Counted from the first letter of the stretch, positions 19,909-53,773 are shown. The stretch is DNA of 58,934 nucleotides from an uncultured archaeon (GCA_964447525.1 CAYUSU010000002.1:23362-82295), one strand, 5' to 3'. The notes: a model not told the origin generated them from the sequence alone. A program made the numbers and translations.

Positions 19909-19948
19909 TCAGGTCATCTTTCGTAATACTGCCTCGGTAGCTCAGTGG

Positions 19949-20007
19949 GGAGCCTTTTCCGGACGTTGACACATGTCACAAAAGCCTCCAGGGAAAAGTT
20001 CGCTGAT
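19949..20007 (+). other. predicted tRNA-Thr intron 1 (59 nt, D-loop)
   Basis: BHB with central helix CAGT/GCTG, bulges GGG and ATT, and flanking helix GAGC/GTTC. Cutting after the 2nd bulge nucleotide gives the canonical D arm. Confidence 0.7.
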
Positions 20008-20047
20008 TAGAGCGTTCGCTTGGTAAGCGAAAGGTCGCGAGTTCAAT

Positions 20048-20080
20048 AAGCGTTCACCCTCGAGGGTGCCCGTTTGGAAT
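20048..20080 (+). other. predicted tRNA-Thr intron 2 (33 nt, T-loop 59/60)
   Basis: BHB with central helix TTCA/TGGA, bulges ATA and ATC, and flanking helix AGCG/CGTT. Confidence 0.7.
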
Positions 20081-20150
20081 CCTCGCCCGAGGCTTAAAAC
20101 AGGTCAAAACCCGTAAACAAATATAAATTCATATGCGATAAATGATTACT

Positions 20151-20243
20151 ATGCCTTGTGGAAGAAAACGAAAAAGAAAGAAGATCAAGAAGCACAAACT
20201 CAAGAAGAGAAGGAAGAAGATGAGGCACAGGAAGAAAAAGTAA
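20151..20243 (+). CDS. 30-aa ultra-basic peptide, eL41-like candidate
   Basis: Not in the ORF track (<60 aa). ATG..TAA encodes MPCGRKRKRKKIKKHKLKKRRKKMRHRKKK. The L-x6-M-R-x-R spacing matches the eL41 pattern ..RRLKRKRRKMR.R.. as I recall it. Confidence 0.5.
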   Translation: MPCGRKRKRKKIKKHKLKKRRKKMRHRKKK

Positions 20244-20301
20244 GCAAAATTGACCACTTTTTTATAGTAAAATCATTTAAATACACAAAACAACAATAGT
20301 A

Positions 20302-21075
20302 ATGCGTTCTAAAAGTAGACCAGGGACAAAAAAATACAGAACGGATACAGTATATATTCTTGGATTCGGAAAATACAAAGATAAATCATTATCGCAGATT
20401 CCTTTGCAGAATTGGAATGCCTACTGGTACCTTAAAGAAGGAAATTACAGAGAATTTCTTGCCGCTAATGACGTTGAAAAAATAGATCACGTGGTCAAAG
20501 CTTTTCAGGAATTTCCGGTTCTTATCAAATGCTGCGGAAAATACGGAGATTGTAAAGAAAATGCAGCGAAATTGGCGATACCGTGGGAGAAAAGAATAAG
20601 TGATTATCATAAAGCAGATAAAGGAAGAAGAGTTCAGTTCGAACTCGGGAGCAATCCCTTTTTCTGTGCTCCATGTTATGAAGATTTTGCACATCAACAT
20701 TCAGACGGATCTAGGGGATTGGGTGTGAGGAGTTTTCCGATCAGTTTCGAAATTTTTACTGATAAGAACGGCCATGCCGACTGGAACCTCAACAGAAGCC
20801 AAATTCACGGGCTTTTCAGGAGAATTGCATTTCAATTAAATGGAAGAGACATACATGATGTTATAGATGTTACTAAAATTGACCCCGAACAAAGACCGGT
20901 ATTCAATCGGGAGAACGCGAAAAACGTCGTGAACAAGCTAATGAGCGTGGACGATCTGTTCGGTTTCGAACCAAGCACGATATCCGAATACAATACGAGT
21001 ATTATTTATACCAATTCACAAAAAGCTAAGTTTTTTAGAAAAAAGAAAGAACCAATTGATCCCGGTTTATTTTAG
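20302..21075 (+). CDS. hypothetical Cys-containing protein
   Basis: 257 aa. The N-terminal FGKYKDKSLSQIP resembles the short DUF3820-type motif. No other domain recognised. Confidence 0.5.
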   Translation: MRSKSRPGTKKYRTDTVYILGFGKYKDKSLSQIPLQNWNAYWYLKEGNYREFLAANDVEKIDHVVKAFQEFPVLIKCCGKYGDCKENAAKLAIPWEKRISDYHKADKGRRVQFELGSNPFFCAPCYEDFAHQHSDGSRGLGVRSFPISFEIFTDKNGHADWNLNRSQIHGLFRRIAFQLNGRDIHDVIDVTKIDPEQRPVFNRENAKNVVNKLMSVDDLFGFEPSTISEYNTSIIYTNSQKAKFFRKKKEPIDPGLF

Positions 21076-21111
21076 ACAAACTATAAAAGTCCGCTCTGCA
21101 ATGTTAATATC

Positions 21112-21465
21112 ATGGCGGAAAAACCAAAAGAAAAGCCGAAAGAGACCAAAGAAGAGAAAAAAGAAGAAAAGACCGAGGAAAAGCCGAAAGAAGAAACAAA
21201 GGTCGACGACAGGAAGGAACTGAATCTTTCGAGGATATCCGTCATAATTCACGTTATTATCGGCGTCGTGGCCGGATGGGCTTCCTACCATACGGTGGAT
21301 GCCCTCTACGGGATCGGAATAATGATCGTTTTTCTGATGATCTCCGGTTATGTTTCTGAAAAGGTTGTTAACAAAAAGGGTATAAAATGGTGGCTCGCTA
21401 ACGGCGGGGCCATATTCGTGTTAATCTGGCTGATCAGCTGGATATATTTCCTTAACATGGTTTAG
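21112..21465 (+). CDS. small membrane protein with Lys/Glu-rich N-terminus and three TM spans
   Basis: 117 aa. AEKPKEKPKETKEEKKEEKTEEKPKEETK is followed by 3 hydrophobic helices. The stop TAG is immediately followed by the arsA/get3 ATG. Confidence 0.6.
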   Translation: MAEKPKEKPKETKEEKKEEKTEEKPKEETKVDDRKELNLSRISVIIHVIIGVVAGWASYHTVDALYGIGIMIVFLMISGYVSEKVVNKKGIKWWLANGGAIFVLIWLISWIYFLNMV

Positions 21466-22413
21466 ATGTTCAAGCGGAATAAAGAGACAACCTATCACTT
21501 CTTTTCAGGTAAAGGGGGTGTAGGGAAGACGAGCGTTTCGGCAGCTACCGCTCTTTATTTTGCCAATAGCGGAAAGAAAACCCTGATCATATCCACGGAT
21601 CCTGCCCATTCCCTTTCCGATTCCTTCGAAACGAACATAGGTGGGGAGGTCAAGGAATTGCGAAAGAACCTTTTCGCGGTGGAAATCGATCCCAAGAAGG
21701 CGATGCAGGAATACAAGGAAAGGTTAATGCCGAAAATCGAGAACATGGGCTTCCTCAAGGGACTGGGACTGGACGATACCTTCGACATCGCAGGAATGAC
21801 TCCTGGCATAGACGAGATAGCAGCATTCGACAAGTTCCTCCAGTATATGCAATCGAAAGATTATGATATTATCGTGTTCGATACGGCTCCTACCGGCCAT
21901 ACACTGCGTTTCCTCTCGCTTCCGGACGTTCTGGATTCATGGGTCGGGAAGATGATCAAGATACGGATGCGATTTTCCGGGATAGCGGACACGTTCAAGA
22001 AATTCCTTCCGTTCGGGGAGTCCGGCGAAAGCGATAAAAAAATAGGAACAGAACAGTTGGACATCATGAAGGAACGGATAGCGGAGGCAAAAAAAATCCT
22101 TTCCGATCCTTCAAAAACCCATTACAACGTGGTCACGATAGCAGAGGCTATGAGCATCCTGGAGTCCGAACGTTCAATACAAGTTCTGAAGGAATACAAC
22201 ATTCCCGTGGAATCCGTCATTGTCAATCAGCTCATACCTGAAAATATGGATTGCCCGTTTTGTACAGAAAAACGAAGGATACAGCAGGGAAGGGTGAAGG
22301 AGATCGAAAAGATGTTCTCGGAATTCAATATAAGACACGTCCCATTGCTCAAGGAAGAATTGAAGGGATTTGACATTCTTGACAGGGTAGGAAAAGAATT
22401 ATACGGAAATTAA
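21466..22413 (+). CDS. arsA: ArsA/Get3 (TRC40)-family ATPase
   Basis: Deviant Walker A GKGGVGKTSVSAATA, STDPAHSLSD, and DTAPTGHTLRFL (switch II). Confidence 0.9.
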   Translation: MFKRNKETTYHFFSGKGGVGKTSVSAATALYFANSGKKTLIISTDPAHSLSDSFETNIGGEVKELRKNLFAVEIDPKKAMQEYKERLMPKIENMGFLKGLGLDDTFDIAGMTPGIDEIAAFDKFLQYMQSKDYDIIVFDTAPTGHTLRFLSLPDVLDSWVGKMIKIRMRFSGIADTFKKFLPFGESGESDKKIGTEQLDIMKERIAEAKKILSDPSKTHYNVVTIAEAMSILESERSIQVLKEYNIPVESVIVNQLIPENMDCPFCTEKRRIQQGRVKEIEKMFSEFNIRHVPLLKEELKGFDILDRVGKELYGN

Positions 22414-22516
22414 GCATTCAATTACGGGTTATGTCCTTTATGATGATTCTGGTCTGTTACGGGCACATTGTTTCAAAATTTATATCGTATTTTGAGTTCA
22501 TATACCAATTCTAAAA

Positions 22517-22954
22517 TTAAACGTTTTGAATAAGTTCTTTTGCCTTATTCATGATTTCTAGCCATTCAGGTGGTTTTTGGAACATGTAAGGAATTTCCAA
22601 TTCGGCAAGCTTTTGTATAACCTCTTTGTATGCTTTTTCCTCTGCCTGACCGGTCAGAACGATTATTTTTTTATTTTCGTATAACGGATGACCCTTTTCT
22701 TTCAGACCCAATATCAATTCTTCCCCGCCCATTTCAGGCATGTTCCAGTCCGTAATTAACAATTGGACCGTTAAAGGGTTTTTCAGGCAGAATTCCAGAG
22801 ATTCCTTCCCATTAGCACATGCTTCGGTCTGGCCTTCTCCGAACAATTCTAATCTCTGAAGATATCTTCCGCCCAAATTTGCGATTACCGGTTCATCATC
22901 AGCGACAACAGCGTATTTTGATTGACCGGGGGTTGATTTAGTGTAATCACTCAT
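22517..22954 (-). CDS. single-domain response regulator (CheY-like receiver)
   Basis: VVADDE, phospho-acceptor context LLITDWNMP, VLTG and FQKP. All canonical receiver positions are present. Confidence 0.85.
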   Translation of the reverse strand: MSDYTKSTPGQSKYAVVADDEPVIANLGGRYLQRLELFGEGQTEACANGKESLEFCLKNPLTVQLLITDWNMPEMGGEELILGLKEKGHPLYENKKIIVLTGQAEEKAYKEVIQKLAELEIPYMFQKPPEWLEIMNKAKELIQNV

Positions 22955-23005
22955 TAATAATAATTAATCACATGTTTTATAAAGTTTCTTTATCCAGAAA
23001 ACTAC

Positions 23006-23401
23006 CTAGTTGTCCATTGTAACTGCGTTTTTGAAATTTCCGAACAGATCATAAGGCTTGGAAAGCACTTCCCATTCCAGCTCTGTGCCGACCCCGAGTT
23101 CCGTTACCTTTCTTCTTGTCATTTCTTGATCCATGCCGCTGATAACGACTACTTTTCCGGTATATCCTTCTTTTTTCAGTCCTATTAGAAGCTGTTCTCC
23201 GTCCATTCTTGCCATAGGCATTCTCATGTCGGTTATTATGAGTTTTACTGTTTCCGGTTCGTTTCGATAACTATTCAGAGCATCGCTGCCGTCAGTAAAA
23301 TCATCCACCGGACAATAACCGAATCTAAGCAAGGCCATTTTGGTAGATTCCCTCACACAAGGCTCATCATCAACAAGAATAGCCCTATATTTACTACTCA
23401 T
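23006..23401 (-). CDS. single-domain response regulator (CheY-like receiver)
   Basis: The start is set at ATG 23401 (MSSKYRAILVDDEP). IITDMRMP, VISG and LSKP are present. The 220-aa track ORF is an upstream extension into ahcY. Confidence 0.85.
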   Translation of the reverse strand: MSSKYRAILVDDEPCVRESTKMALLRFGYCPVDDFTDGSDALNSYRNEPETVKLIITDMRMPMARMDGEQLLIGLKKEGYTGKVVVISGMDQEMTRRKVTELGVGTELEWEVLSKPYDLFGNFKNAVTMDN

Positions 23402-23436
23402 TAATAAAAAATAATTAGAAGGTTTAAAAAGGTTCC

Positions 23437-24696
23437 TCAGGTCCCTTCCTGCCATCCGGTCAGATAAGCCTTCTGTTCTTTTGTGAGAGTGTCTATCTGA
23501 ACACCGAGCGATTTCAGTTTCATCCTGGCAACGGTCATGTCTATCTCCTTGGGAACGACATGGACCTTCACTTTCAGCTTTCCCTTGTTCTTGATTATGT
23601 GATCCGCCGAAAGCGCCTGTAAACAGAAGGAATTGTCCATCACCTCGCTTGGATGACCTTCTGCGCATGCCAGGTTAACGAGCCTCCCTTCTCCCAGAAG
23701 GAACAGTTTCTTCCCGTTTTTAAGCGTTATTTCCTCGACACATCCGCTTACCTTTTTGATGGATTTGGCCATGCTCTTCAGCCCCTTCACATCGACCTCG
23801 GTGTCGAAATGGCCGGCATTCGAAAGTATGGCGCCCGATTTCATTTTGGAAAAATGCTCTTTCTTTATCACGTTCTTGCACCCGGTTACCGTGACGTATA
23901 TGTCACCGTATTTTGCGGCATCGCCCATCGGCATCACGTCGTGTCCGTCATAATACGCTTTCAGCGCCAGTACCGGATCAACCTCCGTCACGATGGTATG
24001 GGCTCCCATCCCCTTTGACATGGCTGCGACTCCCTGGCCGCAATGTCCGTAACCGCCCACGACGACGGTCTTTCCCGGAATAAGGATATTCGTGGCCCTT
24101 ATTATCGAATGGAGCGAACTCTCTCCGGTGCCGTAGAAATTATCGAACATGTTCTTGCATTGCGCGTCATTGACCGCGATAATGGGATACTTCAGTACGC
24201 CGTCTTTCTCCATCGCGCGGAACCGGATGACTCCGGTCGTCGTTTCTTCCGTCCCCCCGATTACCTTCTTGATGAGATCCTTTCTTTTCGTTTGTATTCT
24301 GGTGACAAGATCTCCGCCGTCGTCCATGGTGATATCGGGTCTGGATTTCAGGACCTGATCAACACACCAGTAATATTCCTTGTTGTTTACGCCTCTCCAT
24401 GCGAAGACGTTTATCCCTTCGCTGACGAGGCCTGCCGCTATGTCGTCCTGCGTGCTCAGCGGGTTGGAACCGCACAAATATACGTTCGCCCCCCCTGCTT
24501 TCAGCGTCTTCATGAGAACCGCGGTTTCCTTGGTAACGTGTAAACAGCATGCGATTGTGTAACCTTTCAGCGGCTTTGATTTCGAAAAACGACTCTTAAT
24601 ATTCATAAGAACCGGCATGTGGTTTTCAGCCCACTCGATCTTAAGCTTGCCCTGTGAAGCAAGTTTCATGTCCTTTACTTTGCCCATAAATATCAC
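23437..24696 (-). CDS. ahcY: adenosylhomocysteinase
   Basis: 419 aa. KIEWAENHMPVL, NAD-binding GYGHCGQG and a C-terminal YLTGWQEGT-type end. Confidence 0.95.
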   Translation of the reverse strand: MIFMGKVKDMKLASQGKLKIEWAENHMPVLMNIKSRFSKSKPLKGYTIACCLHVTKETAVLMKTLKAGGANVYLCGSNPLSTQDDIAAGLVSEGINVFAWRGVNNKEYYWCVDQVLKSRPDITMDDGGDLVTRIQTKRKDLIKKVIGGTEETTTGVIRFRAMEKDGVLKYPIIAVNDAQCKNMFDNFYGTGESSLHSIIRATNILIPGKTVVVGGYGHCGQGVAAMSKGMGAHTIVTEVDPVLALKAYYDGHDVMPMGDAAKYGDIYVTVTGCKNVIKKEHFSKMKSGAILSNAGHFDTEVDVKGLKSMAKSIKKVSGCVEEITLKNGKKLFLLGEGRLVNLACAEGHPSEVMDNSFCLQALSADHIIKNKGKLKVKVHVVPKEIDMTVARMKLKSLGVQIDTLTKEQKAYLTGWQEGT

Positions 24697-24722
24697 TCCT
24701 CAACACATAATCATTTTAGGTT

Positions 24723-25760
24723 ATGATATTAATGTTTTTTGATATAAATAATATTATGAAAAATGAAGTGATCGAGGCAATGAAGAAGCCGGACACATAC
24801 GACGAGCCGGTAAACCACATAGATATGATCCAGACCCATATTTCATGGGTGTTCCTTACCGGAAAATATGCTTATAAGATAAAAAAACCGGTAGACTTCG
24901 GCTTCCTGGATTTCTCTACTCTGGACAAAAGGAAGATGTTCTGCAACAAGGAGCTGGGAATCAATAAACTCTTCTCCCCGGACCTCTACCTCGGGGTATT
25001 GCCTGTCAACAGGTTCAACCATGATCTGAAGATAAACGGGCCTGGAGAAACCGTGGAAGTACTGATAAAGATGAAACAACTGCCTCAGGACAGGCTGATG
25101 GACGTTCTCCTCGAGAGGAACGAAATCGGAAATGAAGTGATAGACCAGATAATAGATATCCTCGAGAAGTTCTATTCGAAAACAACCGCATTTAGAGATC
25201 CATGGTCGCAAGGGGGGATAGATACGGTCAAGTTCAACTGGAACGAAAACTTCAAGCAGACATCCAAATACATCGGCATCCTTCTCGAAAGGAAAGAATT
25301 CAATGAGATAAAGAGCAAAGTGGAAATGTTCATGAAAGGAAAGAAAGAGATGATACAAAAAAGACAAAGGGACGGATTCGTGAAATGGTGTCATGGTGAC
25401 CTCCATTCAGGAAACATATTCGTGACCGACAAGGTCAACATATTCGACGCGATCGAGTTCAACGAACGCTTCGCCATCTCCGATGTTGCGAATGACATTG
25501 CGTTTCTCGCTATGGATCTGGATTTCAGAGGCAAGAAGAATCTTGCTGATCATTTCGTTAATAAATACATAGAGAAGAGCGGGGACACAGATCTTACCAC
25601 ACTGCTTGGCTTCTATATGTGTTACAGAGCGTATGTCCGCGGGAAGGTTACCGGATTCCGGCTGGACGATCAGAACATTTCGAACGAGGAAAAAGAAAAG
25701 GCAAGAAGAATCGCGAAAAGATATTTCGAGTATGCGTACCAGTATTCGAAGGAATTTTAA
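24723..25760 (+). CDS. APH-like phosphotransferase (kinase-fold) protein
   Basis: Catalytic loop HGDLHSGNIF and metal-binding IFDAIEF. An alternative ATG lies at 24756. Confidence 0.7.
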   Translation: MILMFFDINNIMKNEVIEAMKKPDTYDEPVNHIDMIQTHISWVFLTGKYAYKIKKPVDFGFLDFSTLDKRKMFCNKELGINKLFSPDLYLGVLPVNRFNHDLKINGPGETVEVLIKMKQLPQDRLMDVLLERNEIGNEVIDQIIDILEKFYSKTTAFRDPWSQGGIDTVKFNWNENFKQTSKYIGILLERKEFNEIKSKVEMFMKGKKEMIQKRQRDGFVKWCHGDLHSGNIFVTDKVNIFDAIEFNERFAISDVANDIAFLAMDLDFRGKKNLADHFVNKYIEKSGDTDLTTLLGFYMCYRAYVRGKVTGFRLDDQNISNEEKEKARRIAKRYFEYAYQYSKEF

Positions 25761-25791
25761 CAAATAAAAAGCTTATTTTTCTATTCAAGCA

Positions 25792-26600: not shown

Positions 26601-26634
26601 GAATTATAATTGAAAGCATGAAATAAAAATTGTT

Positions 26635-27059: not shown

Positions 27060-27821
27060 ATGAAATTAAATTTCCTTTCAGAAATTGAATTGAGCAAAAA
27101 GGATAAAGAGAAAGGTTTGGTGCTGCCTGATCAATTATCTGAAGATTTAGCTTACTTGTGTGGTGTGTTGGCTGGAGATGGTAATATCAATATCAGAAAA
27201 TGGAAATATGATTATGTAATTAAGTGTGTAGGAAACCCAAAAGATGAGGTTGAATATTATGATAAAATCATTAAAGATAAATTCTTGAAAGTTTTTGGAA
27301 TTCAAATTAATCCTAAATTACATGACAAAGGAACTACTTATGGTTTTAGTACATGGTCAAGAGCTTTGGTAAGATTTCTAACTGAAATTATAGGACTTCC
27401 TTCAGGAAAGAAATACGGAAAATTGAAAATCCCATCATTGTTTAAAGATAATGATTTATTCGTTGCATCATTTATCAGAGGTCTTGCTGATACTGATTTT
27501 AGTCTAATGTTCAAAAAAGGAAGTAAAAAGAATCCATATTATCCAGTGATTGTTGGAGTTTCTAAAAGTGAATCTTTTATGAGAGAGGTTATGAATCAAT
27601 TGAAAATCTTTGGTTTTTCCATGTATTTTGAGAAAAGAACATATTATGATAAAAGAGTTGAAAAAAACATTACAACCTATAGAATTTATCTGAATGGAGA
27701 AAAACAACTTGCTCTCTGGAATTCAAAAATTGGATTTGAACACCCAAAAAATCTGAATAAATTAAATATTCATGAGAAAAGAAAAAAAACAAAAATAGCG
27801 AGGGATGGAATTCCAGAATGA
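27060..27821 (+). CDS. double-motif LAGLIDADG homing endonuclease (free-standing)
   Basis: Two LAGLIDADG motifs are present, LAYLCGVLAGDGNI and FIRGLADTDFS. The ORF is visibly AT-rich relative to its flanks. Its last ~26 nt (27796..27821) overlap the tRNA-Met gene antisense. Confidence 0.85.
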   Translation: MKLNFLSEIELSKKDKEKGLVLPDQLSEDLAYLCGVLAGDGNINIRKWKYDYVIKCVGNPKDEVEYYDKIIKDKFLKVFGIQINPKLHDKGTTYGFSTWSRALVRFLTEIIGLPSGKKYGKLKIPSLFKDNDLFVASFIRGLADTDFSLMFKKGSKKNPYYPVIVGVSKSESFMREVMNQLKIFGFSMYFEKRTYYDKRVEKNITTYRIYLNGEKQLALWNSKIGFEHPKNLNKLNIHEKRKKTKIARDGIPE

Positions 27822-27845
27822 AACAGATTTTTTCTGTTTCAAGCC
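27810..27845 (-). other. predicted tRNA-Met intron D (36 nt, T-loop 59/60)
   Basis: Central helix TTCA/TGGA with bulges AAG and ATT. Internal 8-bp hairpin GAAACAGA/TCTGTTTC. It contains the LAGLIDADG stop codon on the other strand. Confidence 0.65.
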
Positions 27846-27861
27846 TTTGAACCATCGACCT

Positions 27862-27891
27862 TTCACCGAAACTGGCTTTCGCCAAATTTCT
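27862..27891 (-). other. predicted tRNA-Met intron C (30 nt, anticodon-stem/variable-loop junction)
   Basis: Removal restores CCCAG-AGGTC-GATGG. It is flanked by a 4-bp helix CACC/GGTG and inner GAAA/TTTC, with a TGGC-GAAA-GCCA hairpin. The 5' bulge is 4 nt, so the BHB is relaxed. Confidence 0.5.
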
Positions 27892-27897
27892 CTGGGT

Positions 27898-27932
27898 GTC
27901 CCACCGGAATAAGTCCGGTTACCTAGAGCCGC
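27898..27932 (-). other. predicted tRNA-Met intron B (35 nt, canonical 37/38)
   Basis: The central helix CCCA/TGGG reaches 4 bp only after intron A is removed. Bulges are TAG and ACA. There is an internal hairpin ACCGGA/TCCGGT. Confidence 0.55.
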
Positions 27933-27937
27933 TATGG

Positions 27938-27960
27938 TTCTGGTTTTGCATCCGCAAAAT
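27938..27960 (-). other. predicted tRNA-Met intron A (23 nt, 32/33)
   Basis: Textbook BHB: CTGG-[GCA]-TTTTGC(GGAT)GCAAAA-CCAG-[AAC]. Confidence 0.65.
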
Positions 27961-28020
27961 GCCCAGCGAGCACTCCAGGCTGCTCCACCTCGCTATGCTA
28001 TTCTAAATAGTGAATTGTGA

Positions 28021-28030: not shown

Positions 28031-28053
28031 TTGATTCTGACAAAACCCTCAAT

Positions 28054-33957: not shown

Positions 33958-33968
33958 GGAGTGATCAT

Positions 33969-34282: not shown

Positions 34283-34374
34283 GCGCTGGTAGTCTAGTCT
34301 GGTAGGACACAGACATTAATGGATGGTGTATGCTTGCCAAGCCTGTAACCCGGGTTCAAATCCCGGCCAGCGCA
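34283..34374 (+). tRNA. tRNA-Gly (anticodon GCC at 34336..34338) with one intron in the anticodon stem
   Basis: Acceptor GCGCTGG/CCAGCGC. D arm GTCT/GGAC. T arm CCGGG-TTCAAAT-CCCGG. Removing 34313..34331 joins CAG+GC to give stem CAGGC/GCCTG and loop TTGCCAA. Confidence 0.85.
34313..34331 (+). other. predicted tRNA-Gly intron (19 nt, 29/30)
   Basis: BHB with central helix ACAC/GTGT (perfect), bulges AGA and ATG, and inner helix CAT/ATG. Confidence 0.75.
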
Positions 34375-35060: not shown

Positions 35061-35153
35061 ATATATAAAATATTTCCTTAATTCTATTATACAAACGAAC
35101 AACGCAGGTGTAAGCTGCGTTTCCAAGATACGCGGGGGTAGCCAAGTGGTCAA

Positions 35154-35188
35154 GTGTCTTCGTGCGTTCTAACGCACAGAGGGGCTAA
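35154..35188 (+). other. predicted tRNA-Leu intron 1 (35 nt, D-loop)
   Basis: Central helix GGTC/GGCT (two G:U) with bulge AAG on the 5' side and AAA on the 3' side. Internal hairpin GTGCG/CGCAC. The BHB is relaxed. Confidence 0.55.
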
Positions 35189-35197
35189 AGGCGATAG

Positions 35198-35232
35198 AAT
35201 GGTTTTGAACGCTGATTCAAGATGATGTCGTT
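35198..35232 (+). other. predicted tRNA-Leu intron 2 (35 nt, 30/31)
   Basis: Central helix CGAT/GTCG with bulges AGA and TTG. Splicing joins ATAG+G. Internal hairpin TTGAA/TTCAA. Confidence 0.7.
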
Positions 35233-35253
35233 GCTCAAGACCTATTCACTTAG

Positions 35254-35284
35254 AGCTTTTTGCCGTGAGGCGGATGGCAAGGAA
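35254..35284 (+). other. possible tRNA-Leu intron 3 (31 nt, variable-arm loop)
   Basis: Removal would leave a 15-nt variable arm T-CAC-TTAGT-GTG-TTC. The supporting helix CTT/AAG is only 3 bp plus a mismatch, so this is tentative. Confidence 0.35.
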
Positions 35285-35317
35285 TGTGTTCGCGGGTTCG
35301 AATCCCACCCCCCGCAT

Positions 35318-38949: not shown

Positions 38950-38971
38950 AATTAAATCTATTTTTTTTAAA

Positions 38972-39054
38972 CGCCGAGACAGGGATTCGAACCCTGAACC
39001 CCGAGAGGGGACTAGCTTTCCAGGCTAGCGCCTTAACCGTTCAGCCATCTCGGC
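38972..39054 (-). tRNA. tRNA-Ser (anticodon GGA), class II, intron-less
   Basis: Minus strand reads GCCGAGATGGCTGAACGGTTAAGGCGCTAGCCTGGAAAGCTAGTCCCCTCTCGGGGTTCAGGGTTCGAATCCCTGTCTCGGCG. Anticodon loop CTGGAAA, long variable arm, T arm CAGGG/CCCTG. Confidence 0.9.
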
Positions 39055-39081
39055 AGATATAGAATTATCTTAAAACAATCC

Positions 39082-45920: not shown

Positions 45921-45922
45921 AC

Positions 45923-47224: not shown

Positions 47225-47248
47225 TATTCACCTCGCTTTAATAAAATC

Positions 47249-47578: not shown

Positions 47579-47579
47579 T

Positions 47580-47840: not shown

Positions 47841-47841
47841 G

Positions 47842-48303: not shown

Positions 48304-48335
48304 GTTATATTTTTTGGTCTAATTGGTATAAGAAA

Positions 48336-48980
48336 TCATTTCTTCGCAGGAGCCTTGACCTGCTTTTTTGGCGCTGTCTTTGCTTTGGCTTTCACCGGAC
48401 CGGCACTTATCTTTTTCTTCGTTTCCTCAAAAAGCTTTTGGATGTTCTCCGGTTCTATCTTGTTTTTGATGTATGCGGAAAAGACTTTTTTGTATTTCTC
48501 CGGTTCGTTCTTTTTCAGTAACTGTGCAAAATTAGCTATGTGCGTTCCCGAGAACCTTTCCGGTTTTGGAAGGATTTCGTCAGAATGCGGAACATTGAGC
48601 CCTCCGTCAATCGCTCCCTTAAGAGCCGAAAACAGCCTGTTTCCCTGCGTAGAAGAGTAAAGTCCCATGTCAAGTATTGCTTCCTTTACTCCGTTTTCCT
48701 TTGCTTTCACCCCGCACAGGAATCCTGTCAGATAGGCCGAAGGAAGATTTCCGCAGTGTGCTTTCCATCCGTATCTTGGAAGTTCCTTGGAATCCGATGT
48801 AACAATGACCTTGTCACCATTCGTTTCGTAGTTGATTATCTGGCAGATTATGTTATTGTTTGATCTCCTCACGACTAACCTGTGTTTTCCAGATTTCAGA
48901 AGACTCAACCTCTGCCTGTAATCGGTTTTCCCTTCTCTTTTCCTTCTGTGAGGAATCACTCTGGTTCTACTTCTTTTCAT
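48336..48980 (-). CDS. rpl18: 50S ribosomal protein uL18
   Basis: RRKREGKTDYRQRLSLLKSGKHRLVVRRSNNNIICQI with a Lys/Ala-rich C-terminal tail. Confidence 0.9.
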   Translation of the reverse strand: MKRSRTRVIPHRRKREGKTDYRQRLSLLKSGKHRLVVRRSNNNIICQIINYETNGDKVIVTSDSKELPRYGWKAHCGNLPSAYLTGFLCGVKAKENGVKEAILDMGLYSSTQGNRLFSALKGAIDGGLNVPHSDEILPKPERFSGTHIANFAQLLKKNEPEKYKKVFSAYIKNKIEPENIQKLFEETKKKISAGPVKAKAKTAPKKQVKAPAKK

Positions 48981-49542
48981 TTTTTTCTACCTTCTTCGTC
49001 GTTTTCTTGGGAGCCGCCTTCTTCTCGGCAGCCTTTTTGACCGGTTTTTTAGTTTCTTTTTTCTTGATCGTTTCTACTTTATTCGCTTCCGGTTTATCGT
49101 CGGTCTTTAACAGTTCGTGTTCTTTCAGATAGTACAATAAATGTTTCTTGTTCCTGAAGAAACCGCCCTTTGCCATTAAATATAATTTCCTGTATTTACC
49201 TTCGGCAAGCTTGTCCTTTTCTTTCATGTCCCTCAGAAGTTTCCTCAAAGGACGAATCTTTTCCATCCATATCGTCTTCTTGGGCTTTCTGGAATGCAGC
49301 TTACCTTTTTTTCTCCCTTCTCCCTTTCTCCTGCCTCTTTTCTTTTGCTTTTTTTTGTGTTCAGCATCTATCCGTGTTATTCCCTTCTTTTTTTTCTTGT
49401 AGATAACACCCCTGGTTATCAGGGTTCTGATGTCGTTCCTTGTTATTGCCTCTTCAACTTCCTTTTCGCTTCTGATTTTGACTCTGGAAACGCCTATCTT
49501 CATTACCTTCGAAGCAAGATGTTTCTGGGATCTTACGTTCAT
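48967..49542 (-). CDS. rpl19e: 50S ribosomal protein eL19
   Basis: MNVRSQKHLASKVMKIGVSRVKI. The track start at 49551 is GTG and the ATG at 49542 lies 5 nt after the rps2 stop. The C-terminal tail is long and Lys-rich. Confidence 0.9.
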   Translation of the reverse strand: MNVRSQKHLASKVMKIGVSRVKIRSEKEVEEAITRNDIRTLITRGVIYKKKKKGITRIDAEHKKKQKKRGRRKGEGRKKGKLHSRKPKKTIWMEKIRPLRKLLRDMKEKDKLAEGKYRKLYLMAKGGFFRNKKHLLYYLKEHELLKTDDKPEANKVETIKKKETKKPVKKAAEKKAAPKKTTKKVEKNEKK

Positions 49543-49547
49543 AAAAA

Positions 49548-50162
49548 TCACTCACCACCGAAATCCTTCAGTGTGTACTTGAATTCCTCGTTTTTCGTTA
49601 TCTTTTTCCTGTTCTTGAGAATCTCCCTCGCCATAAGCATGAAAACAATGGCAATCGCCTTTTTCCCGTTGTTGTTTATCGGAATCGCATAATCAACATT
49701 AACTGCGTCGTTGAACGTGTCACACAAAGCAATCACCGGAATCCTCTTCTTCTTTGCCTCTTCCACAGCCTGCCTGTCTATCAGGGGATCAACAACGATT
49801 ATTATATCAGGTTCGTAGAACTTCCTGAATGAAGGATTCGTTAGGGTACCCGGGCTGAACCTTCCACCCACGGCCACTCCCCCGACAACTTCGGAGAACT
49901 TTTCTATTGCCCTTCTCCCGTTGTTTTTTCTGGAAACGACCATTATCTTGTCGAATCTTGACACGAAATCGCTGGCTGTCTTTATCCTTTCGTCAACCTT
50001 CTGGATATTGAATACCGAAAGACCGTCATCCCTGACCTTGTATATGAACCTTTTCATATATTTTGTGCACATCTTCATCCCTATGTGCACGCCTGATGTC
50101 AGGTATTCCGTCCTGCTGGCGAGCATGTCCTTCTCTTCCGGCTTTGTCTCTTTTACATTCAT
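49548..50162 (-). CDS. rps2: 30S ribosomal protein uS2
   Basis: YLTSGVHIGMKMCTKYMKRFIYKVRDDGLSVFNIQKVDERI and IIVVDP...IPVIALCDT. Confidence 0.9.
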   Translation of the reverse strand: MNVKETKPEEKDMLASRTEYLTSGVHIGMKMCTKYMKRFIYKVRDDGLSVFNIQKVDERIKTASDFVSRFDKIMVVSRKNNGRRAIEKFSEVVGGVAVGGRFSPGTLTNPSFRKFYEPDIIIVVDPLIDRQAVEEAKKKRIPVIALCDTFNDAVNVDYAIPINNNGKKAIAIVFMLMAREILKNRKKITKNEEFKYTLKDFGGE

Positions 50163-50529
50163 TATATCTAACCAATGAGTATACGGTAATCCATATTATT
50201 TATCCCTTATATTTAAATATATACTTAATTACGAAGGTTTGTCTCTATGCCTTGATTGAAGATATACAGTTATAAGATTTATTTTTTTATTATTTGTTAT
50301 GGATGATGTATTAATGGTCGGGTTCAAGATCAACCCTGACAGTTTGCTTTTAGACGTAGGGATCGTCACCGGAAAATATCCGGTTTGGGCAATCAGAAAA
50401 CGCAATAGTTGTGCCCCAATAGATGTCGTTACAAAAAAAGGAACCTATATCAGAACTCCGAAAACGCTCGAGATTATTTATTAATCATGGCAATTCGGCT
50501 ATGTTGTTATATAAAACAGAAACCGGATT

Positions 50530-50922
50530 TTAGACATTGGAAGCAGCCAAGTGGCTTTGTTGGTCAATGTACGCCTTTCTTGCGAGTTTCATGACTCCAA
50601 GGGTTTTTCTGACGTCAGCAATGTCACTCGTGAATGTGTCCGGATTGTATTCATCAAAAATCATTCTTCTTATGGATTCGTCCGTCTCTGAACCGTCTCC
50701 TATCAGGGCAACTGCGCAAAGATTAATAACGTTTCTGATGAAGTTTTTCTTCTTTCTGACAGCACAGTCCTCGTTTCCGTCGGAAAGTTTGTTCATGGCA
50801 TGTACCATGTCAACTTCTCTCAGCGTAAAAACAGGACGATTCTCGTACGGCTTGGGTACCAGTGTACAGTATCTTTCTCCCGAGTCAAACTCGATCTTCT
50901 TCCCGTTTATGTATACTTGCAT
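50530..50922 (-). CDS. hypothetical protein
   Basis: 130-aa ORF between eno and rps2 on the same strand. No motif recognised. Confidence 0.5.
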   Translation of the reverse strand: MQVYINGKKIEFDSGERYCTLVPKPYENRPVFTLREVDMVHAMNKLSDGNEDCAVRKKKNFIRNVINLCAVALIGDGSETDESIRRMIFDEYNPDTFTSDIADVRKTLGVMKLARKAYIDQQSHLAASNV

Positions 50923-50964
50923 GTTACCACTTTATTTAACTTTCAGAAGCAAGCTTTATAATTT

Positions 50965-52140
50965 TTACGGTAACTCTGCCATGCTGTTATGGGGGATGTC
51001 GTGCCATAATTCTATCAACCTGTTATGTTTCATCGTGTCGGGCCCGAGGTTTCCTATCTTGATCAGCGGGCTTTTCCATAATAATGAGAGGTCTGAAAGC
51101 CAGTCATCATACGTTTCCCTTGACCTGTGGGAGGCGATAGTGTGAATGCCGTTCTGCCTGGCCATTTCCGCTGTCTGGAACGCCTGTGAAAGCGTGCCGA
51201 TCTGATTGGGTTTGATTATTATCCCGTTGGCCGAGCCTTTTACAATCCCCTTCCTCAGCCGTTCCGCGTTCGTGCAGAACAGATCGTCACCCACTACCAG
51301 CGTTTTCGGCAGGGACTGTCGGAGATCCGCGAAATTCCTGAAATCGTTCTCGTGGAACGGATCCTCAAGAAAGTAGAGCTTGTACTGTTCCGCGACCTGG
51401 AGTATGGTGTCGAAATGCTCCTCCGGGCTTATTTTCTTCCCCAGGTCTTTGTAGACGTAATTCTTCCCGTCCCAGAAAGAGGAAGCCGCGAAATCTATAC
51501 CTATCTTCGCATCCCAGTCTTCCACCATGTTCGAGAGGAAGTCCAGCGTCTTTATGCAGTCTAACCTGCACATCCAGGCGTTTTCTATGTTCTTTCCCGT
51601 AAGAATGCCCTTCCTTTTCAGCTCGTCGCCTATGGTATGCCACATCTCGAAATTCATCCTTGTCGCATGCTCCGGGTCTCTGGCTTTTTGTGGTATGATC
51701 AGGAATTCCTGCCACGTCGATTTTCCGCCGTGCTTCGCCCCGCCAATGACATTACCTAATGGATAGGGGAAGGCCATCCTTGATTTCGGGCCTTCCAGTC
51801 TCCATAATTCGCCATCGCTCGATGCCCTCGCAACGGCCAGTGAAGTGGCGAGAGCGAGGTTCCCTCCGATGTTTTGAAAATCGTTGGAATTGTCCAATTG
51901 AAGTAGAATCTTGTCGATGGTCACCCAGTCCGTCTCGTCCAGTCCTATCAGCGAATTGCGGATCTTTGGGAAGACCTTCGTGACCTCGTTGTACCTGAGG
52001 CTTTTCGCTTCGTTCTCTCCCTTGGATGTTCCTGCTGTGGCGCATGCAGTGAAAAATCCTTTAACGGTCCATACCTTCACCTTTATTGTGATCTCTCCGG
52101 TAGAATCGTAGATGGGATATAGCTTGACATTTCTTATCAT
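50965..52140 (-). CDS. eno: enolase-family protein (short, divergent)
   Basis: GDDLFCTNAERL and ASHRSRETYDDWLSDLSL correspond to the enolase GDDLxVTN and SHRSGETED blocks. It sits in the conserved archaeal rpoK-eno-rps2 context. Confidence 0.75.
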   Translation of the reverse strand: MIRNVKLYPIYDSTGEITIKVKVWTVKGFFTACATAGTSKGENEAKSLRYNEVTKVFPKIRNSLIGLDETDWVTIDKILLQLDNSNDFQNIGGNLALATSLAVARASSDGELWRLEGPKSRMAFPYPLGNVIGGAKHGGKSTWQEFLIIPQKARDPEHATRMNFEMWHTIGDELKRKGILTGKNIENAWMCRLDCIKTLDFLSNMVEDWDAKIGIDFAASSFWDGKNYVYKDLGKKISPEEHFDTILQVAEQYKLYFLEDPFHENDFRNFADLRQSLPKTLVVGDDLFCTNAERLRKGIVKGSANGIIIKPNQIGTLSQAFQTAEMARQNGIHTIASHRSRETYDDWLSDLSLLWKSPLIKIGNLGPDTMKHNRLIELWHDIPHNSMAELP

Positions 52141-52172
52141 GATTTATTCTATTGTTCTGCAGAATAAATAAA

Positions 52173-52355
52173 TCAGCACTTTTCCTTCTTAATTTCGATC
52201 GGAATGACTTCTTTTTCCCATTCCATCTCAGCGATCTTCTGGGGATCGGTCATCCCCTTCGGAAGGTTGACCAGAACAGGCGCTCCCTGCGCTATCTGAA
52301 GTGCCCTTGTGGAGATTATTCGTGCCTTTTCGTATCTCGTATATCCTTTATCCAT
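52173..52355 (-). CDS. rpoK: DNA-directed RNA polymerase subunit K (Rpo6)
   Basis: 60 aa, TRYEKARIISTRALQIAQGAPVLV. Confidence 0.85.
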   Translation of the reverse strand: MDKGYTRYEKARIISTRALQIAQGAPVLVNLPKGMTDPQKIAEMEWEKEVIPIEIKKEKC

Positions 52356-52361
52356 AATAAT

Positions 52362-53159
52362 TCACCCTATGTATCTTAGCTGCTCGTCTCCCTTGGTTCC
52401 CTTCTGTTGGGTGCTCTTGGTTATGTCCATGAGCGCGCGCTTCTGGAGAGCCTCCACCTTCCTGATGAAGTTCTCCATCTCTTTCACCTTCTTCTCCAGT
52501 TTTGTCATGTCAATATCGAGTTTGAGTATCTTCATGACGGTTCCAAGAACATGTTCTGCCGCCTTCGGGTCGGTGACAATAGGAAAACCGGTGGTCTGCC
52601 CTAACAGGCATATCCCGTTCTTGTCCCTCTCCTTCCACAAACCAAGTAACAGCCCCGCCGCTCCGACAATGTATCCTACCTTCTCGCCCGCCTTGAAGTC
52701 TATCCCGAGATCCCCGTATTTTTTCATGATACTCTTGTCAGTCACGGCCCCGATCACCTTTTTCTTCCCTTCAAGCTCACCGGTCGCAAGACCGCCTATG
52801 GTCATGATTTCCTTTACGCCGATCTCCTCTGAAAAATCAAGTATTTTTTCGCAGACCTCGTAATGGCCCTGCGGACTAAGCGATTGGCAGTCTCCTACCA
52901 GAAAGACGATGTCTCTTTGTCCCTTTTTCTTTGCCTTGACGTAATAGAATTCGTTCTTCAGCAAATGCACCTTGTAATTGTCGTGAAGCATGACGAACGG
53001 GAAGAACCACTTGGAATACAAATCAGCGCATTTTTTCGCTCCAAGTTCCTCCAGTAAATATCCCACTGCCACTCTTCCGATATTTCCGACTCCCGGAAGA
53101 CCCTCGATCAGAATGGCGTTGTTCAGTTTTACTTTCTCAATGACCTTGATAGTTGTCAT
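52362..53159 (-). CDS. PAC2-family proteasome assembly chaperone
   Basis: LIEGLPGVGNIGRVAVGYLLEEL N-terminus and a coiled C-terminal tail, as in archaeal PbaA/PbaB. Confidence 0.8.
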   Translation of the reverse strand: MTTIKVIEKVKLNNAILIEGLPGVGNIGRVAVGYLLEELGAKKCADLYSKWFFPFVMLHDNYKVHLLKNEFYYVKAKKKGQRDIVFLVGDCQSLSPQGHYEVCEKILDFSEEIGVKEIMTIGGLATGELEGKKKVIGAVTDKSIMKKYGDLGIDFKAGEKVGYIVGAAGLLLGLWKERDKNGICLLGQTTGFPIVTDPKAAEHVLGTVMKILKLDIDMTKLEKKVKEMENFIRKVEALQKRALMDITKSTQQKGTKGDEQLRYIG

Positions 53160-53236
53160 AAAAATGCCTCAGATTAATATTATTACTTACTTCTTTTCGA
53201 TATTTATATATAAAAAGATATCTGGCAAATTACAAT

Positions 53237-53491
53237 CTATTCTAAACCCTTTTTTACAACGGCTTTGAAAAATCCATCCGATTCATCTTCAAATTCACTC
53301 ACATTATCTTTCAGTTTTTTCCTGTCCCCGGCTGAGAGCGGCTTTTCGAAATGATATATGGTTTTGTCATTCCCCATGTTCATGGAAGAAACGCGATATC
53401 CGAGATCTCCGAATCGCTCTATGAAATATTTGGACAATATTTCCCCGTTGCTTGACTTCCAGTTTATTTTTAAATTATTCCGCCATGACAT
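53237..53491 (-). CDS. hypothetical protein
   Basis: 84-aa ORF with no motif. Confidence 0.4.
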   Translation of the reverse strand: MSWRNNLKINWKSSNGEILSKYFIERFGDLGYRVSSMNMGNDKTIYHFEKPLSAGDRKKLKDNVSEFEDESDGFFKAVVKKGLE

Positions 53492-53540
53492 GATAAAAAG
53501 TTGAAAATAAACCTTTTATTCCTTTCCGTGTCCATTTTTA

Positions 53541-53550
53541 TTTAAAAATA
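53541..53550 (+). promoter_or_regulatory. TATA-box-like element upstream of tRNA-Glu
   Basis: TTTAAAAATA at -32 to -23 from tRNA nucleotide 1. Confidence 0.45.
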
Positions 53551-53595
53551 CCGCATACATTATTGTAACATTGCCCCTGTAGTCTAGCTGGCCAA

Positions 53596-53617
53596 AGTCG
53601 CGAAAGCGAGCGGCTAT
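53596..53617 (+). other. predicted tRNA-Glu intron 1 (22 nt, D-loop/D-stem junction)
   Basis: BHB with central helix GGCC/GGCT and bulges AAA and ATG. The inner hairpin GTCGC-GAAA-GCGA(G)C has a GNRA loop. Confidence 0.65.
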
Positions 53618-53654
53618 GGATACCGGCCTCTCGAGCCGGTGACCCGGGTTCAAA

Positions 53655-53726
53655 ATCAGCCCTTTTCTTCCCGAAGAAAAGGTTTGAGATCCCAAAAGAA
53701 GGGATTTACAGATTCGCTGATGAAAC
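53655..53726 (+). other. predicted tRNA-Glu intron 2 (72 nt, T-loop 59/60)
   Basis: BHB with central helix TTCA/TGAA (perfect), bulges AAA and ACT, and inner helix TCAGC/GCTGA (perfect). There are two internal hairpins. Confidence 0.75.
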
Positions 53727-53773
53727 TCCCGGCGGGGGCATATTTATTTTCTGACAGATAAATTTCAACTAAT

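Follow-up and report, generated by a model that had tools for sequence, protein, structure and literature searches.

A window of 58,934 nt from an uncultured archaeon (GCA_964447525.1, CAYUSU010000002.1:23362-82295) raises the question whether five of its six tRNA genes are truly interrupted by introns and, if so, how these introns are recognised and how they spread. The preliminary description of this DNA had predicted 12 introns and named Thermoproteales and a few ultrasmall archaea as groups with comparable density; the host is indeed an ultrasmall archaeon, of the Aenigmatarchaeota (DPANN). All six genes were located as described, with position 19931 as the first base of tRNA-Thr and 53740 as the last base of tRNA-Glu. 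The positions and lengths of the 12 inserts, which are an upper count, also agreed; they lie in five genes, and tRNA-Ser is the sole uninterrupted one. The 11-12 short predicted introns in five of six tRNA genes are real and unusually dense, and such tRNA gene disruption has precedents in a few other archaeal groups. The genes are in all probability ordinary, functional Aenigmatarchaeota tRNA genes interrupted by 11-12 short introns of the archaeal (BHB) type.

ARAGORN and the Rfam tRNA model found tRNA-Ser alone, and tRNA-Gly was added once introns were allowed. Four of the six genes, that of the initiator tRNA-Met included, are invisible to the Rfam model and default ARAGORN, and tRNA-Gly escapes Rfam and is labelled tRNA-Pro by ARAGORN in its default mode. 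In-silico removal of the 12 inserts gave six cloverleafs with correct anticodons, all of them intron-free calls in ARAGORN, with spliced lengths of 72 nt for Thr(GGT), 75 for Met(CAT), 73 for Gly(GCC), 91 or 84 for Leu(CAA), 83 for Ser(GGA), and 74 for Glu(CTC). Twelve orthologues from related loci were likewise intron-free tRNAs in ARAGORN after in-silico splicing. A heuristic search of the window yielded no interrupted tRNA genes beyond the six.

Besides the spliced cloverleafs, the claim of multiple non-canonical BHB-type introns is carried by the junctions themselves. In the motif, an exon 4-mer that ends 2 nt ahead of the 5' cut is paired with an intron 4-mer ending 2 nt ahead of the 3' cut, so that both cuts fall in 3-nt bulges. 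All 4 bp of this central helix form in precisely the register required for cleavage at 10 of the 12 junction pairs; prior removal of the Met 32/33 intron raises the count to 11. A random window site has a complete helix with p = 0.0196 (2%), which gives a probability of about 5e-16 for at least 10 of 12. Some boundaries were picked among sequence-equivalent placements for maximal pairing, a slight inflation that is covered by allowing three equivalent placements per intron, and the probability is then about 3e-11. Helix cells were paired at 96% in the predicted register, versus 25-50% with the partner slid by 1-3 nt. Five introns (both in Thr, the one in Gly, Leu 30/31, and Glu 59/60) have the strict hBHBh' motif with both flanking helices; the other seven motifs are relaxed, with one flank weak or absent or with a 4-nt bulge.

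The tRNA-Thr(GGT) gene (19931-20094, plus strand, 164 nt) contains two introns, and its ARAGORN cloverleaf of 72 nt after in-silico splicing is identical at 72/72 positions to that of the relative L009 and at 71/72 to those of L011, L015, and L019. The D-loop intron after G19 (19949-20007, plus strand, 59 nt) has the central helix CAGT/GCTG with h=2 and h'=4; L009 carries an identical intron, and the site is empty in L011 and L015. The 59/60 intron (20048-20080, plus strand, 33 nt) forms a strict hBHBh' motif of TTCA with TGGA, in which h=5 is the T stem itself and h'=4. In the orthologous introns of L009, L011, and L014 the 3' strand of the helix is preserved (TGGA, or TGCA in L014) but the hairpin sequences differ widely; L015 and L019 have no intron here.

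The tRNA-Glu(CTC) gene (53573-53740, plus strand, 168 nt) gives a spliced cloverleaf after removal of two introns, and 71 of the 74 mature positions are identical to tRNA-Glu of L013 (Rfam 50.7 bits). The D-loop intron at 21/22 (53596-53617, plus strand, 22 nt) has a relaxed motif, GGCC/GGCT with h=1 and h'=2, and the 59/60 intron (53655-53726, plus strand, 72 nt) a strict BHB motif, TTCA/TGAA with h=5 and h'=5. Both sites are empty in L013, which has a 37/38 intron instead. In the tRNA-Gly(GCC) gene (34283-34374, plus strand, 92 nt), called by ARAGORN with introns allowed and folding into a cloverleaf once spliced, the only intron is at 29/30 (34313-34331, plus strand, 19 nt) and has a strict motif, ACAC/GTGT with h=7 and h'=4. 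It is 17/19 identical in L002, whose tRNA-Gly has an additional 65-nt intron at 59/60. The uninterrupted tRNA-Ser(GGA) gene (38972-39054, minus strand) scored 61.1 bits with the Rfam tRNA model; its orthologues are interrupted, by an 11-nt 37/38 intron in L001 and by D-loop and 59/60 introns in L002.

The initiator tRNA-Met(CAT) gene (27796-27994, minus strand, 199 nt) is predicted to carry four introns. The mature 75-nt tRNA has A1:U72, G29-31:C39-41, and an unusual C33, and is 73/75 identical to that of L015, where positions 8-73 are contiguous. The 32/33 intron (27938-27960, minus strand, 23 nt) has an HBh'-type motif, CTGG/CCAG with h'=7; it is 22/23 identical in L002, and L014, L015, and L019 have an uninterrupted 32/33 site. 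It splits the central helix of the motif at the canonical 37/38 position (intron 27898-27932, minus strand, 35 nt), so that the helix CCCA/TGGG of the latter is 3/4 with the 32/33 intron in place and complete after its removal. Because it lies inside this helix, the 32/33 intron is probably removed first, upon which the 37/38 helix would form. The 37/38 intron is present in L002 and absent from L014, L015, and L019. The 59/60 intron (27810-27845, minus strand, 36 nt) pairs TTCA with TGGA (h=5, h'=1, then an 8-bp hairpin); an intron is also found there in L002, L014, and L019, and the L015 site is empty. The remaining insert at 43/44 (27862-27891, minus strand, 30 nt) misses the strict register (2/4 helix), and a repeated AG allows placement at 43/44, 44/45, or 45/46. 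Its local fold provides a relaxed HBh' motif with a helix CACC/GGUG that takes in the last base of the adjoining intron, a 4-nt 5' bulge, and a 9-bp hairpin. The insert is absent in all four relatives (L002, L014, L015, and L019), all of which read CCCAGAGGTCG. With one intron nested in the recognition helix of another, this four-intron initiator tRNA is a substrate for the study of splicing order and DPANN EndA specificity.

The tRNA-Leu(CAA) gene (35132-35316, plus strand, 185 nt) has a C50-A64 mismatch in the T stem and three inserts. The D-loop intron (35154-35188, plus strand, 35 nt) has a relaxed motif, GGTC/GGCT with weak flanking helices, and occurs at the same site in L002 in a 13-nt version. 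The 30/31 intron (35198-35232, plus strand, 35 nt; CGAT/GTCG, h=2, h'=2) has a 37-nt orthologue with an identical helix in L002. The boundaries of the variable-arm insert (35254-35286, plus strand, 24 or 31 nt) are ambiguous: removal of 35263-35286 (24 nt) uses a complete 4/4 helix, TTTT/GGAA, and leaves a 12-nt arm loop, and removal of 35254-35284 (31 nt) uses a 3/4 helix and produces an arm of standard size, 15 nt, with the same sequence in the window as in L002. No choice is made here because several boundaries common to both genomes score alike, and the word "tentative", by which this intron had been qualified in the preliminary description, is apt. The insert is also present in L002, where the substitutions in its hairpin preserve pairing. 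For Gly 29/30 and the three Leu inserts, no empty-site orthologue was found among the relatives examined.

The weak points of the intron assignment are thus the two variable-region inserts, Met 43/44 with a relaxed motif only and the Leu variable arm with its ambiguous boundaries. This leads to the question whether these two, unlike the other ten, escape splicing and form an extra or enlarged arm of the mature tRNA. Both lack a convincing strict BHB, both form stable hairpins, and both are located where class II tRNAs already bear an extra arm; the pairing-preserving substitutions of the L002 Leu insert also fit retention. Nevertheless such retention is unlikely. The Met insert is missing from four out of four relatives and does permit a relaxed HBh' motif that places the cuts at the correct bonds; its retention would give the initiator tRNA a variable region of 35 nt, for which we know of no precedent. 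ARAGORN fails to recognise either tRNA with the variable-region insert retained, and removal of 31 nt from tRNA-Leu gives the same standard arm in both genomes. Still less credible, to the point of being very improbable, is that insertions have turned the interrupted genes into pseudogenes, with functional copies elsewhere. That they are unseen by covariance-model and standard tRNA finders, and that one T-stem pair of the Leu gene is mismatched, would fit such decay, but the exons are strongly conserved and near-identical to their orthologues, the inserts are in exact BHB register, and five further genomes of the clade, two of them complete (about 0.85 and 1.1 Mb), carry other interruptions in these genes. 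The initiator tRNA is moreover essential and normally single-copy in DPANN genomes, which speaks against a pseudogene. Splicing of functional genes hence remains the preferred reading for both variable-region inserts as for the rest.

Two further identities were considered and rejected. No Intron_gpI or Intron_gpII Rfam match was obtained in the window even at E <= 10, nor any match of group I/II ribozyme models at the gathering score in seven related loci, and inserts of 19-72 nt are too short for a self-splicing ribozyme. A role as hosts of C/D-box guide RNAs was dismissed after inspection by eye, as CTGA and TGATG strings are scattered and not conserved in orthologues.

In the 59/60 introns of Thr, Met, and Glu the partners of the T-loop TTCA are TGGA, TGGA, and TGAA, exactly as had been claimed. 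These three introns do not form a sequence family: pairwise Smith-Waterman scores are 11-12, compared with a shuffle 95th percentile of 14. Their common helix arises because the conserved T-loop TTCA serves as one of its strands. The pairing partner of any intron at 59/60 has to be T54-T55-C56-R57, and the T stem doubles as its outer helix; since T-loop TTCR and T stem are thereby supplied, an insert needs only a matching 4-mer near its own 3' end. The 59/60 position would accordingly be a hot spot at which the TTCR gives one central-helix strand and the T stem the whole outer helix. Common descent of the three as a single family spread within the genome, as the term "recurrent class" might imply, could account for the shared position and central helix strand and for the similar 3' ends (TGGAAT, TGGAAT, and TGAAAC), but is improbable given that the local alignments do not exceed the shuffle threshold, that the shared 4-mer is dictated by pairing with the invariant T loop, and that the Glu 59/60 intron has its relatives at other positions, for instance in the D loop of L002 tRNA-Leu.

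Empty sites occur in relatives for Met 32/33, 37/38, 43/44, and 59/60, for the Glu D loop and 59/60, and for the Thr D loop and 59/60, and different introns elsewhere in these relatives therefore point to fast turnover. Mature tRNAs are 89-100% identical between genomes and orthologous introns 33-96%; introns such as Thr 59/60 retain the helix-forming 4-mer and a hairpin, not the sequence. Against a Smith-Waterman null with a maximum of 20 over 3000 shuffles, the L015 Thr 37/38 intron scored 44 with the L002 Gly 59/60 intron and 42 with the L014 Thr D-loop intron, and the Glu 59/60 intron of the window scored 28 with L002 Leu D-loop intron 1. In addition, a 22-nt hairpin is common, in reverse complement, to the L019 Thr D-loop and L014 Thr 59/60 introns. 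Intron families are thus real but cross both positions and tRNAs. This clear homology points to transposition, and we infer that introns are quickly gained and lost and that at least some have spread by transposition between positions and tRNAs. Free intron copies outside tRNA genes were not found in 237 kb, searches for the tRNA exon patterns in viral contigs gave unrelated coding sequence or no match, and a metagenome scan with topoisomerase returned only short or distant contigs without tRNAs. With six related genomes that have different introns in the same genes, clean gain and loss events together with cross-position homology can inform how BHB introns spread.

In the splicing model, EndA would cut both bulges, an RtcB-type ligase would join the exons, and the excised introns would probably be released as circles. 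A relaxed-recognition endonuclease of the (alpha-beta)2 or epsilon2 type had been postulated, and broad specificity is indeed implied by the seven relaxed motifs out of 12, since these call for an enzyme that accepts weak flanking helices and a 4-nt bulge. The five strict 3-4-3 motifs with both flanking helices could be cleaved by any EndA type under the published rule. A tblastn search of the window and of 237 kb of related loci with Methanocaldococcus jannaschii EndA detected no EndA gene, and none was among 40 window ORFs scanned with Pfam; the EndA and ligase genes were not found because they are outside the available sequence. A database search with the M. jannaschii protein matched Methanococcales and unlabelled or other DPANN sequences and no Aenigmatarchaeota-labelled EndA, and a DPANN EndA profile search was dominated by two-unit Methanosarcinales-type proteins, again with no match labelled Aenigmatarchaeota; a cluster look-up of ten NCBI-sourced matches likewise tied none to this phylum. 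Single-unit EndAs of 170-205 aa were found in other DPANN. In several DPANN lineages whose tRNA genes are heavily disrupted, Kaneta et al. 2018 described EndAs of the single-unit alpha4 type that carry an "L3" insert, and they judged subunit type the least contributor to substrate range (PMC5829648). This suggests that the EndA subunit type is not decisive in DPANN, and because of that study the earlier view that a homotetrameric or homodimeric EndA in the genome would speak against the introns was too strict.

The closest known system is found in the DPANN archaeon ARMAN-2 (Candidatus Micrarchaeum acidiphilum), which has 59/60 introns and a broad-specificity EndA (Fujishima et al. 2011, PMC3239211). 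Both genomes have introns at many non-canonical positions including 59/60 (in ARMAN-2, tRNA-Cys and tRNA-Pro, the latter at 53/54 and 59/60), mix strict and relaxed BHB motifs, and have genes that escape standard tRNA finders (PMC3239211). The present genome differs in its phylum, Aenigmatarchaeota, and in one gene with four introns, and its load is higher, with 12 introns in six genes, a small sample, versus 56% of genes disrupted in ARMAN-2 (PMC3239211). The ARMAN-2 EndA is of the epsilon2 type (PMC3239211). Thermoproteales, as summarised in PMC3239211 and PMC8450103 (citing Sugahara 2008 and Fujishima 2010), likewise show several introns per gene at scattered positions, introns that must be removed before the next BHB forms, and related introns at different positions that imply transposition; they are described as TACK-lineage hyperthermophiles with an (alpha-beta)2 EndA. 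Their average is 0.84 introns per gene and their maximum 71 introns in 46 genes (PMC8450103), compared with about two per gene in the window and about 2.8 in the relative L002/L011, both small samples. For the Asgard Atabeyarchaeia and Freyarchaeia, the available account reports interruptions, often at non-canonical positions, in 92-95% of tRNA genes, with several introns in more than half of the genes and up to four per gene in a supplementary table (Valentin-Alvarado et al. 2024, PMC11291895). Those archaea, unlike the host here, have large genomes, and the account includes no analysis across relatives of uninterrupted sites or intron families such as the present set of genomes permits (PMC11291895).

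Most window tRNA genes are missed by standard finders, so that, unless intron-aware, iterative methods are applied, tRNAs will be under-counted in annotations of DPANN metagenome-assembled genomes and in the completeness and auxotrophy inferences drawn for them. A joint reading of the above, rather speculative as a whole, is a clade with the heaviest tRNA-intron load yet seen (about 2-2.8 per gene), kept up by an actively moving family of small hairpin introns that a single-unit (alpha4-like) EndA of broad specificity would process. The moving introns would then integrate into the DNA, in one orientation or the other, at any tRNA site able to complete a BHB. If true, this clade would be a natural system in which BHB-intron gain and loss can be watched between near-identical genomes. 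LAGLIDADG endonuclease genes repeatedly adjoin tRNA genes in the clade, and may aid intron movement.

In default mode, ARAGORN called the tRNA-Ser(GGA) gene of the window at 38971-39055 and gave a second gene, at 34283-34374, the wrong label. The Rfam tRNA model matched the Ser gene as its sole hit (61.1 bits) and, at permissive thresholds, nothing beyond it in the window. With introns permitted, ARAGORN recognized tRNA-Gly(GCC) with a 19-nt intron and mistook the Leu locus for a tRNA-Lys; the remaining tRNA genes were detected by neither tool. The intergenic stretches were read, the tRNA genes were parsed by hand, and each was then scanned for bulge-helix-bulge (BHB) geometry, in which the four exon bases that stop 2 nt short of the 5′ cut pair with the four intron bases that stop 2 nt short of the 3′ cut. 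The parse confirmed that five of the six tRNA genes are riddled with introns. Twelve inserts were placed, in Thr (D-loop, 59/60), Met (32/33, 37/38, 43/44, 59/60), Gly (29/30), Leu (D-loop, 30/31, variable arm), and Glu (D-loop, 59/60). Their coordinates, positions, and lengths match those of the preliminary description, as do the 59/60 introns of 33, 36, and 72 nt, with TTCA paired to TGGA, TGGA, and TGAA. After removal of the inserts in silico, ARAGORN drew six intron-free cloverleafs: Thr(GGT), 72 nt; Met(CAT), 75 nt; Gly(GCC), 73 nt; Leu(CAA), 91 nt; Ser(GGA), 83 nt; and Glu(CTC), 74 nt. Two features mark the Met gene as an initiator tRNA (iMet) by established criteria: an A1:U72 pair, and three G:C pairs at the base of its anticodon stem. 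A heuristic scan of the window for acceptor and T-arm pairs with inserts turned up no tRNA genes other than these six.

With G-U permitted, the central helix is complete (4/4) at 10 of the 12 sites in unspliced RNA and at 11 once the Met 32/33 intron is removed. Random window sites with the same insert lengths gave 4/4 at p = 0.0196, and the probability of at least 10 of 12 is ~5e-16, or ~3e-11 allowing three equivalent placements per intron. In the predicted register 96% of the helix cells are paired, versus 25-50% with the partner strand slid by 1-3 nt. Five motifs are strict (flanking helices h and h′ both at least 2), namely both in Thr and those at Gly, Leu 30/31, and Glu 59/60; seven are relaxed.

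The window, which belongs to a contig of 82,295 nt, carries archaeal housekeeping genes (Cbf5, RadB, PCNA, FtsY, ribosomal proteins, MetRS, topoisomerase). Its topoisomerase is 86% identical to that of GCA_016932215, a genome labeled Candidatus Aenigmatarchaeota, and 74% to that of a second uncultured archaeon, and the best Cbf5 matches with NCBI names are also Aenigmarchaeota. Orthologous tRNA loci were recovered and parsed from five related genomes. In L015, a locus from a 1.1-Mb genome, Met is unbroken from nucleotide 8 to 73 and agrees with the spliced window Met at 73 of 75 positions, C33 included; this contiguity supports all four Met introns together. The 43/44 insert is also absent from Met in the related loci L002, L014, and L019. 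The Glu gene of GCA_016932215 is without both window introns and has a 45-nt canonical 37/38 intron; it scores 50.7 bits with Rfam and is identical to the spliced window Glu at 71 of 74 positions. The Thr gene carries two introns both in the window and in L009, and two at another combination of positions (37/38 and 59/60) in L011; L014 has three, and L015 and L019 have a single one each. Ser, uninterrupted in the window, is broken in L001 by a 37/38 intron of 11 nt and in L002 by D-loop and 59/60 introns. Also in L002, Gly has an additional 59/60 intron compared with the window and Leu has two D-loop introns. Tallied from small samples per genome, the intron load is 12 in six genes for the window, 14 in five for L002 and L011 jointly, four in three for GCA_016932215, five in two for L014, and two in two for each of L015 and L019. 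Across genomes, mature tRNAs are 89-100% identical and orthologous introns 33-96%; some introns, Thr 59/60 among them, keep the helix-forming 4-mer and a hairpin but not the sequence.

The Met 32/33 intron divides the C32|C33-C34-A35 strand of the 37/38 helix, which has three of four pairs before its removal and four after, the anticodon stem then forming a 5-bp outer helix. As one intron thus interrupts the helix of another, the iMet introns are likely spliced in an order, and a dependency of such kind is known in other archaea (PMC8450103).

For two of the inserts, Met 43/44 and that in the Leu variable arm, we considered whether one or both might be kept in the tRNA as an extra arm, which is unlikely. 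Met 43/44 has two of four pairs in the strict register. In the minimum-energy fold of the unspliced region, a CACC/GGUG helix borrows its first C from the 37/38 intron, whose final base it is. Next come a 5′ bulge of 4 nt, which contains the 43|44 bond, and a hairpin of 9 bp; the 3′ cut falls 2 nt past GGUG. As modeled, this is a relaxed HBh′-like motif, a type known for broad-specificity enzymes (PMC3239211). The Leu insert is also found in L002, with substitutions that keep pairing, and no empty-site relative was among the orthologous loci recovered. If it is an intron, its boundaries can be placed in two ways, neither preferred: a 24-nt placement has a perfect TTTT/GGAA helix and leaves a 12-nt arm loop, and a 31-nt placement (35254-35284) has a 3/4 helix and leaves a standard 15-nt arm, the same in the window and L002. 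The T arm of this tRNA-Leu(CAA) (35294-35310) contains a C50-A64 mismatch (GCGGG/CCCAC); the L002 T stem is fully paired (CAGGG/CCCTG).

At 59/60, the central helix would have T54-T55-C56-A57 as its 5′ strand, and the outer helix would be the T stem, a role taken at 37/38 by the anticodon stem. The position accounts for 10 of 37 compiled introns, plus one of two further introns parsed in L019, and its recurrence would follow from T-loop bases and T stem supplying helix strand and outer helix. The preliminary description had proposed a recurrent 59/60 class; the common position and helix hold, but sequence kinship does not, with pairwise local scores among the three window introns of 11-12 versus a shuffle 95th percentile of 14. 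They have a common helix without kinship because T54-T55-C56-A57 is one of its strands.

Intron families, sought by local alignment of the 37 introns against shuffled controls (null maximum 20), extend across positions and tRNAs. Judged by alignment, the homology is clear: L015 Thr 37/38 scored 44 with L002 Gly 59/60 and 42 with L014 Thr D-loop, to which L011 Thr 37/38 aligned at 32, and the first D-loop intron of L002 Leu scored 28 with window Glu 59/60 and 23 with window Thr D-loop. Related introns follow a design of a GCCTTT...AAAGGC hairpin, an A-rich AATCGAAAAC or GGGAAAAG, and a second hairpin. A 22-nt hairpin of the L019 Thr D-loop intron (10836-10875), GAAGCAGAT-GAA-ATCTGCTTC, is an exact reverse complement (22/22) of one in L014 Thr 59/60 (12520-12558). 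A palindromic module appears common to differing positions in opposite orientation, a hint that introns move as DNA. A search of 237 kb for free intron copies beyond the tRNA genes was negative. The pattern resembles the transposition inferred for Thermoproteales (cited in PMC3239211).

Behind the BHB register, restored cloverleafs, and empty sites observed here, established archaeal tRNA splicing would have the endonuclease EndA cut both bulges and an RtcB-type ligase join the exons. Neither the window nor the related loci contain an endA gene, and sequence-database searches returned no EndA attributable to Aenigmatarchaeota; the matches included single-unit EndAs (170-205 aa) of other DPANN phyla. 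An (αβ)2 or ε2 enzyme had been predicted in the preliminary description. This prediction is weakened by Kaneta et al. 2018 (PMC5829648), who describe alpha4-type EndAs with an L3 insert from several DPANN lineages whose tRNA genes are heavily disrupted, and who conclude that subunit type contributes least to substrate recognition.

Multiple non-canonical BHB introns are themselves already known in archaea. They are established in Thermoproteales, where genes average 0.84 of them and P. calidifontis has 71 in its 46 genes (PMC8450103), and likewise in ARMAN-2, where 59/60 introns are cut in vitro by its own ε2 enzyme (PMC3239211). Among Asgard archaea, Atabeyarchaeia and Freyarchaeia were recently reported to have 92-95% of their tRNA genes interrupted and, over three genomes, 228 introns (PMC11291895). 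Three introns per gene is an often-quoted maximum (PMC3239211, PMC8450103); a table in PMC11291895 has columns for a fourth intron, so the maximum has already been passed outside this clade. The literature searched contained no account of tRNA introns in Aenigmatarchaeota. Noteworthy here are the intron density, the four-intron iMet, and the clean gain/loss series among close relatives.

Several further features were observed around the tRNA genes. The iMet has C33 (27937) in place of the near-universal U33, within the anticodon loop CCCAUAA; C33 is kept in all five genomes sampled (window, L002, L014, L015, L019), also in the uninterrupted anticodon loops of the last three. Convergent with the iMet gene (3′ end 27796) and covering its last ~26 nt is a 253-aa ORF (27060-27821, + strand) with two LAGLIDADG motifs (LAGDG ... 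GLADTD) and a Pfam LAGLIDADG_3 match just under the cutoff (E = 1.8e-4). Absent at the equivalent spot in L011, it looks like a free-standing homing-endonuclease gene inserted beside the tRNA gene. A different LAGLIDADG gene immediately precedes iMet, in the same orientation, in L015 (16820-17500, −) and L014 (19507-20250, −), with 51% mutual identity. Ahead of the ORF in L015 are a promoter of tRNA type and a 12-nt repeat of the tRNA 5′ end (AGCGGGGTGGAG), and a second AGCGGGG and a perfect 22-nt BHB intron at 7/8 precede the tRNA body. L014 has two additional upstream copies of GCGGGGTGGAG, and the ORF ends 30 nt within the tRNA. The gene would lie within a ~600-nt intron or within a long leader, neither being preferred. 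L014 also has a 338-aa LAGLIDADG_2 ORF directly after its three-intron Thr gene.

Just downstream of the window tRNA-Thr, a 30-codon Lys/Arg-rich ORF (20151-20243, +; MPCGRKRKRKKIKKHKLKKRRKKMRHRKKK) recurs nearly verbatim at the equivalent place in L009, L011, L014, and L019; it has no Pfam match and is presumably similar to ribosomal protein eL41. About 100 nt upstream of the Thr gene, a conserved block (AAAACAATAAAAATTCAANCGGAYACTAAWTAGTA) followed by a 9-bp hairpin (19815-19930, +) is found in L009 and L011 as well, the position of the hairpin being constant but not its sequence; a small RNA beside cbf5 is one possible reading, and a distant promoter followed by a long, structured leader is another. 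Within the 368-nt gap 50163-50529, an element at 50300-50345 (+) has C-box-like GATGATGT (50302-50309) and D-box-like CTGA (50336-50339) sequences ~27 nt apart; it has no Rfam match and may be a C/D-box guide RNA. The methionyl-tRNA synthetase is shorter in L014 and L015 (658-694 aa), where B3/4 is not among the Pfam matches. The 884-aa enzyme of the window (13820-16474, −) carries between its anticodon-binding and C-terminal tRNA-binding domains, as in L009 and L011, a B3/4 domain, the usual home of which is PheRS beta.
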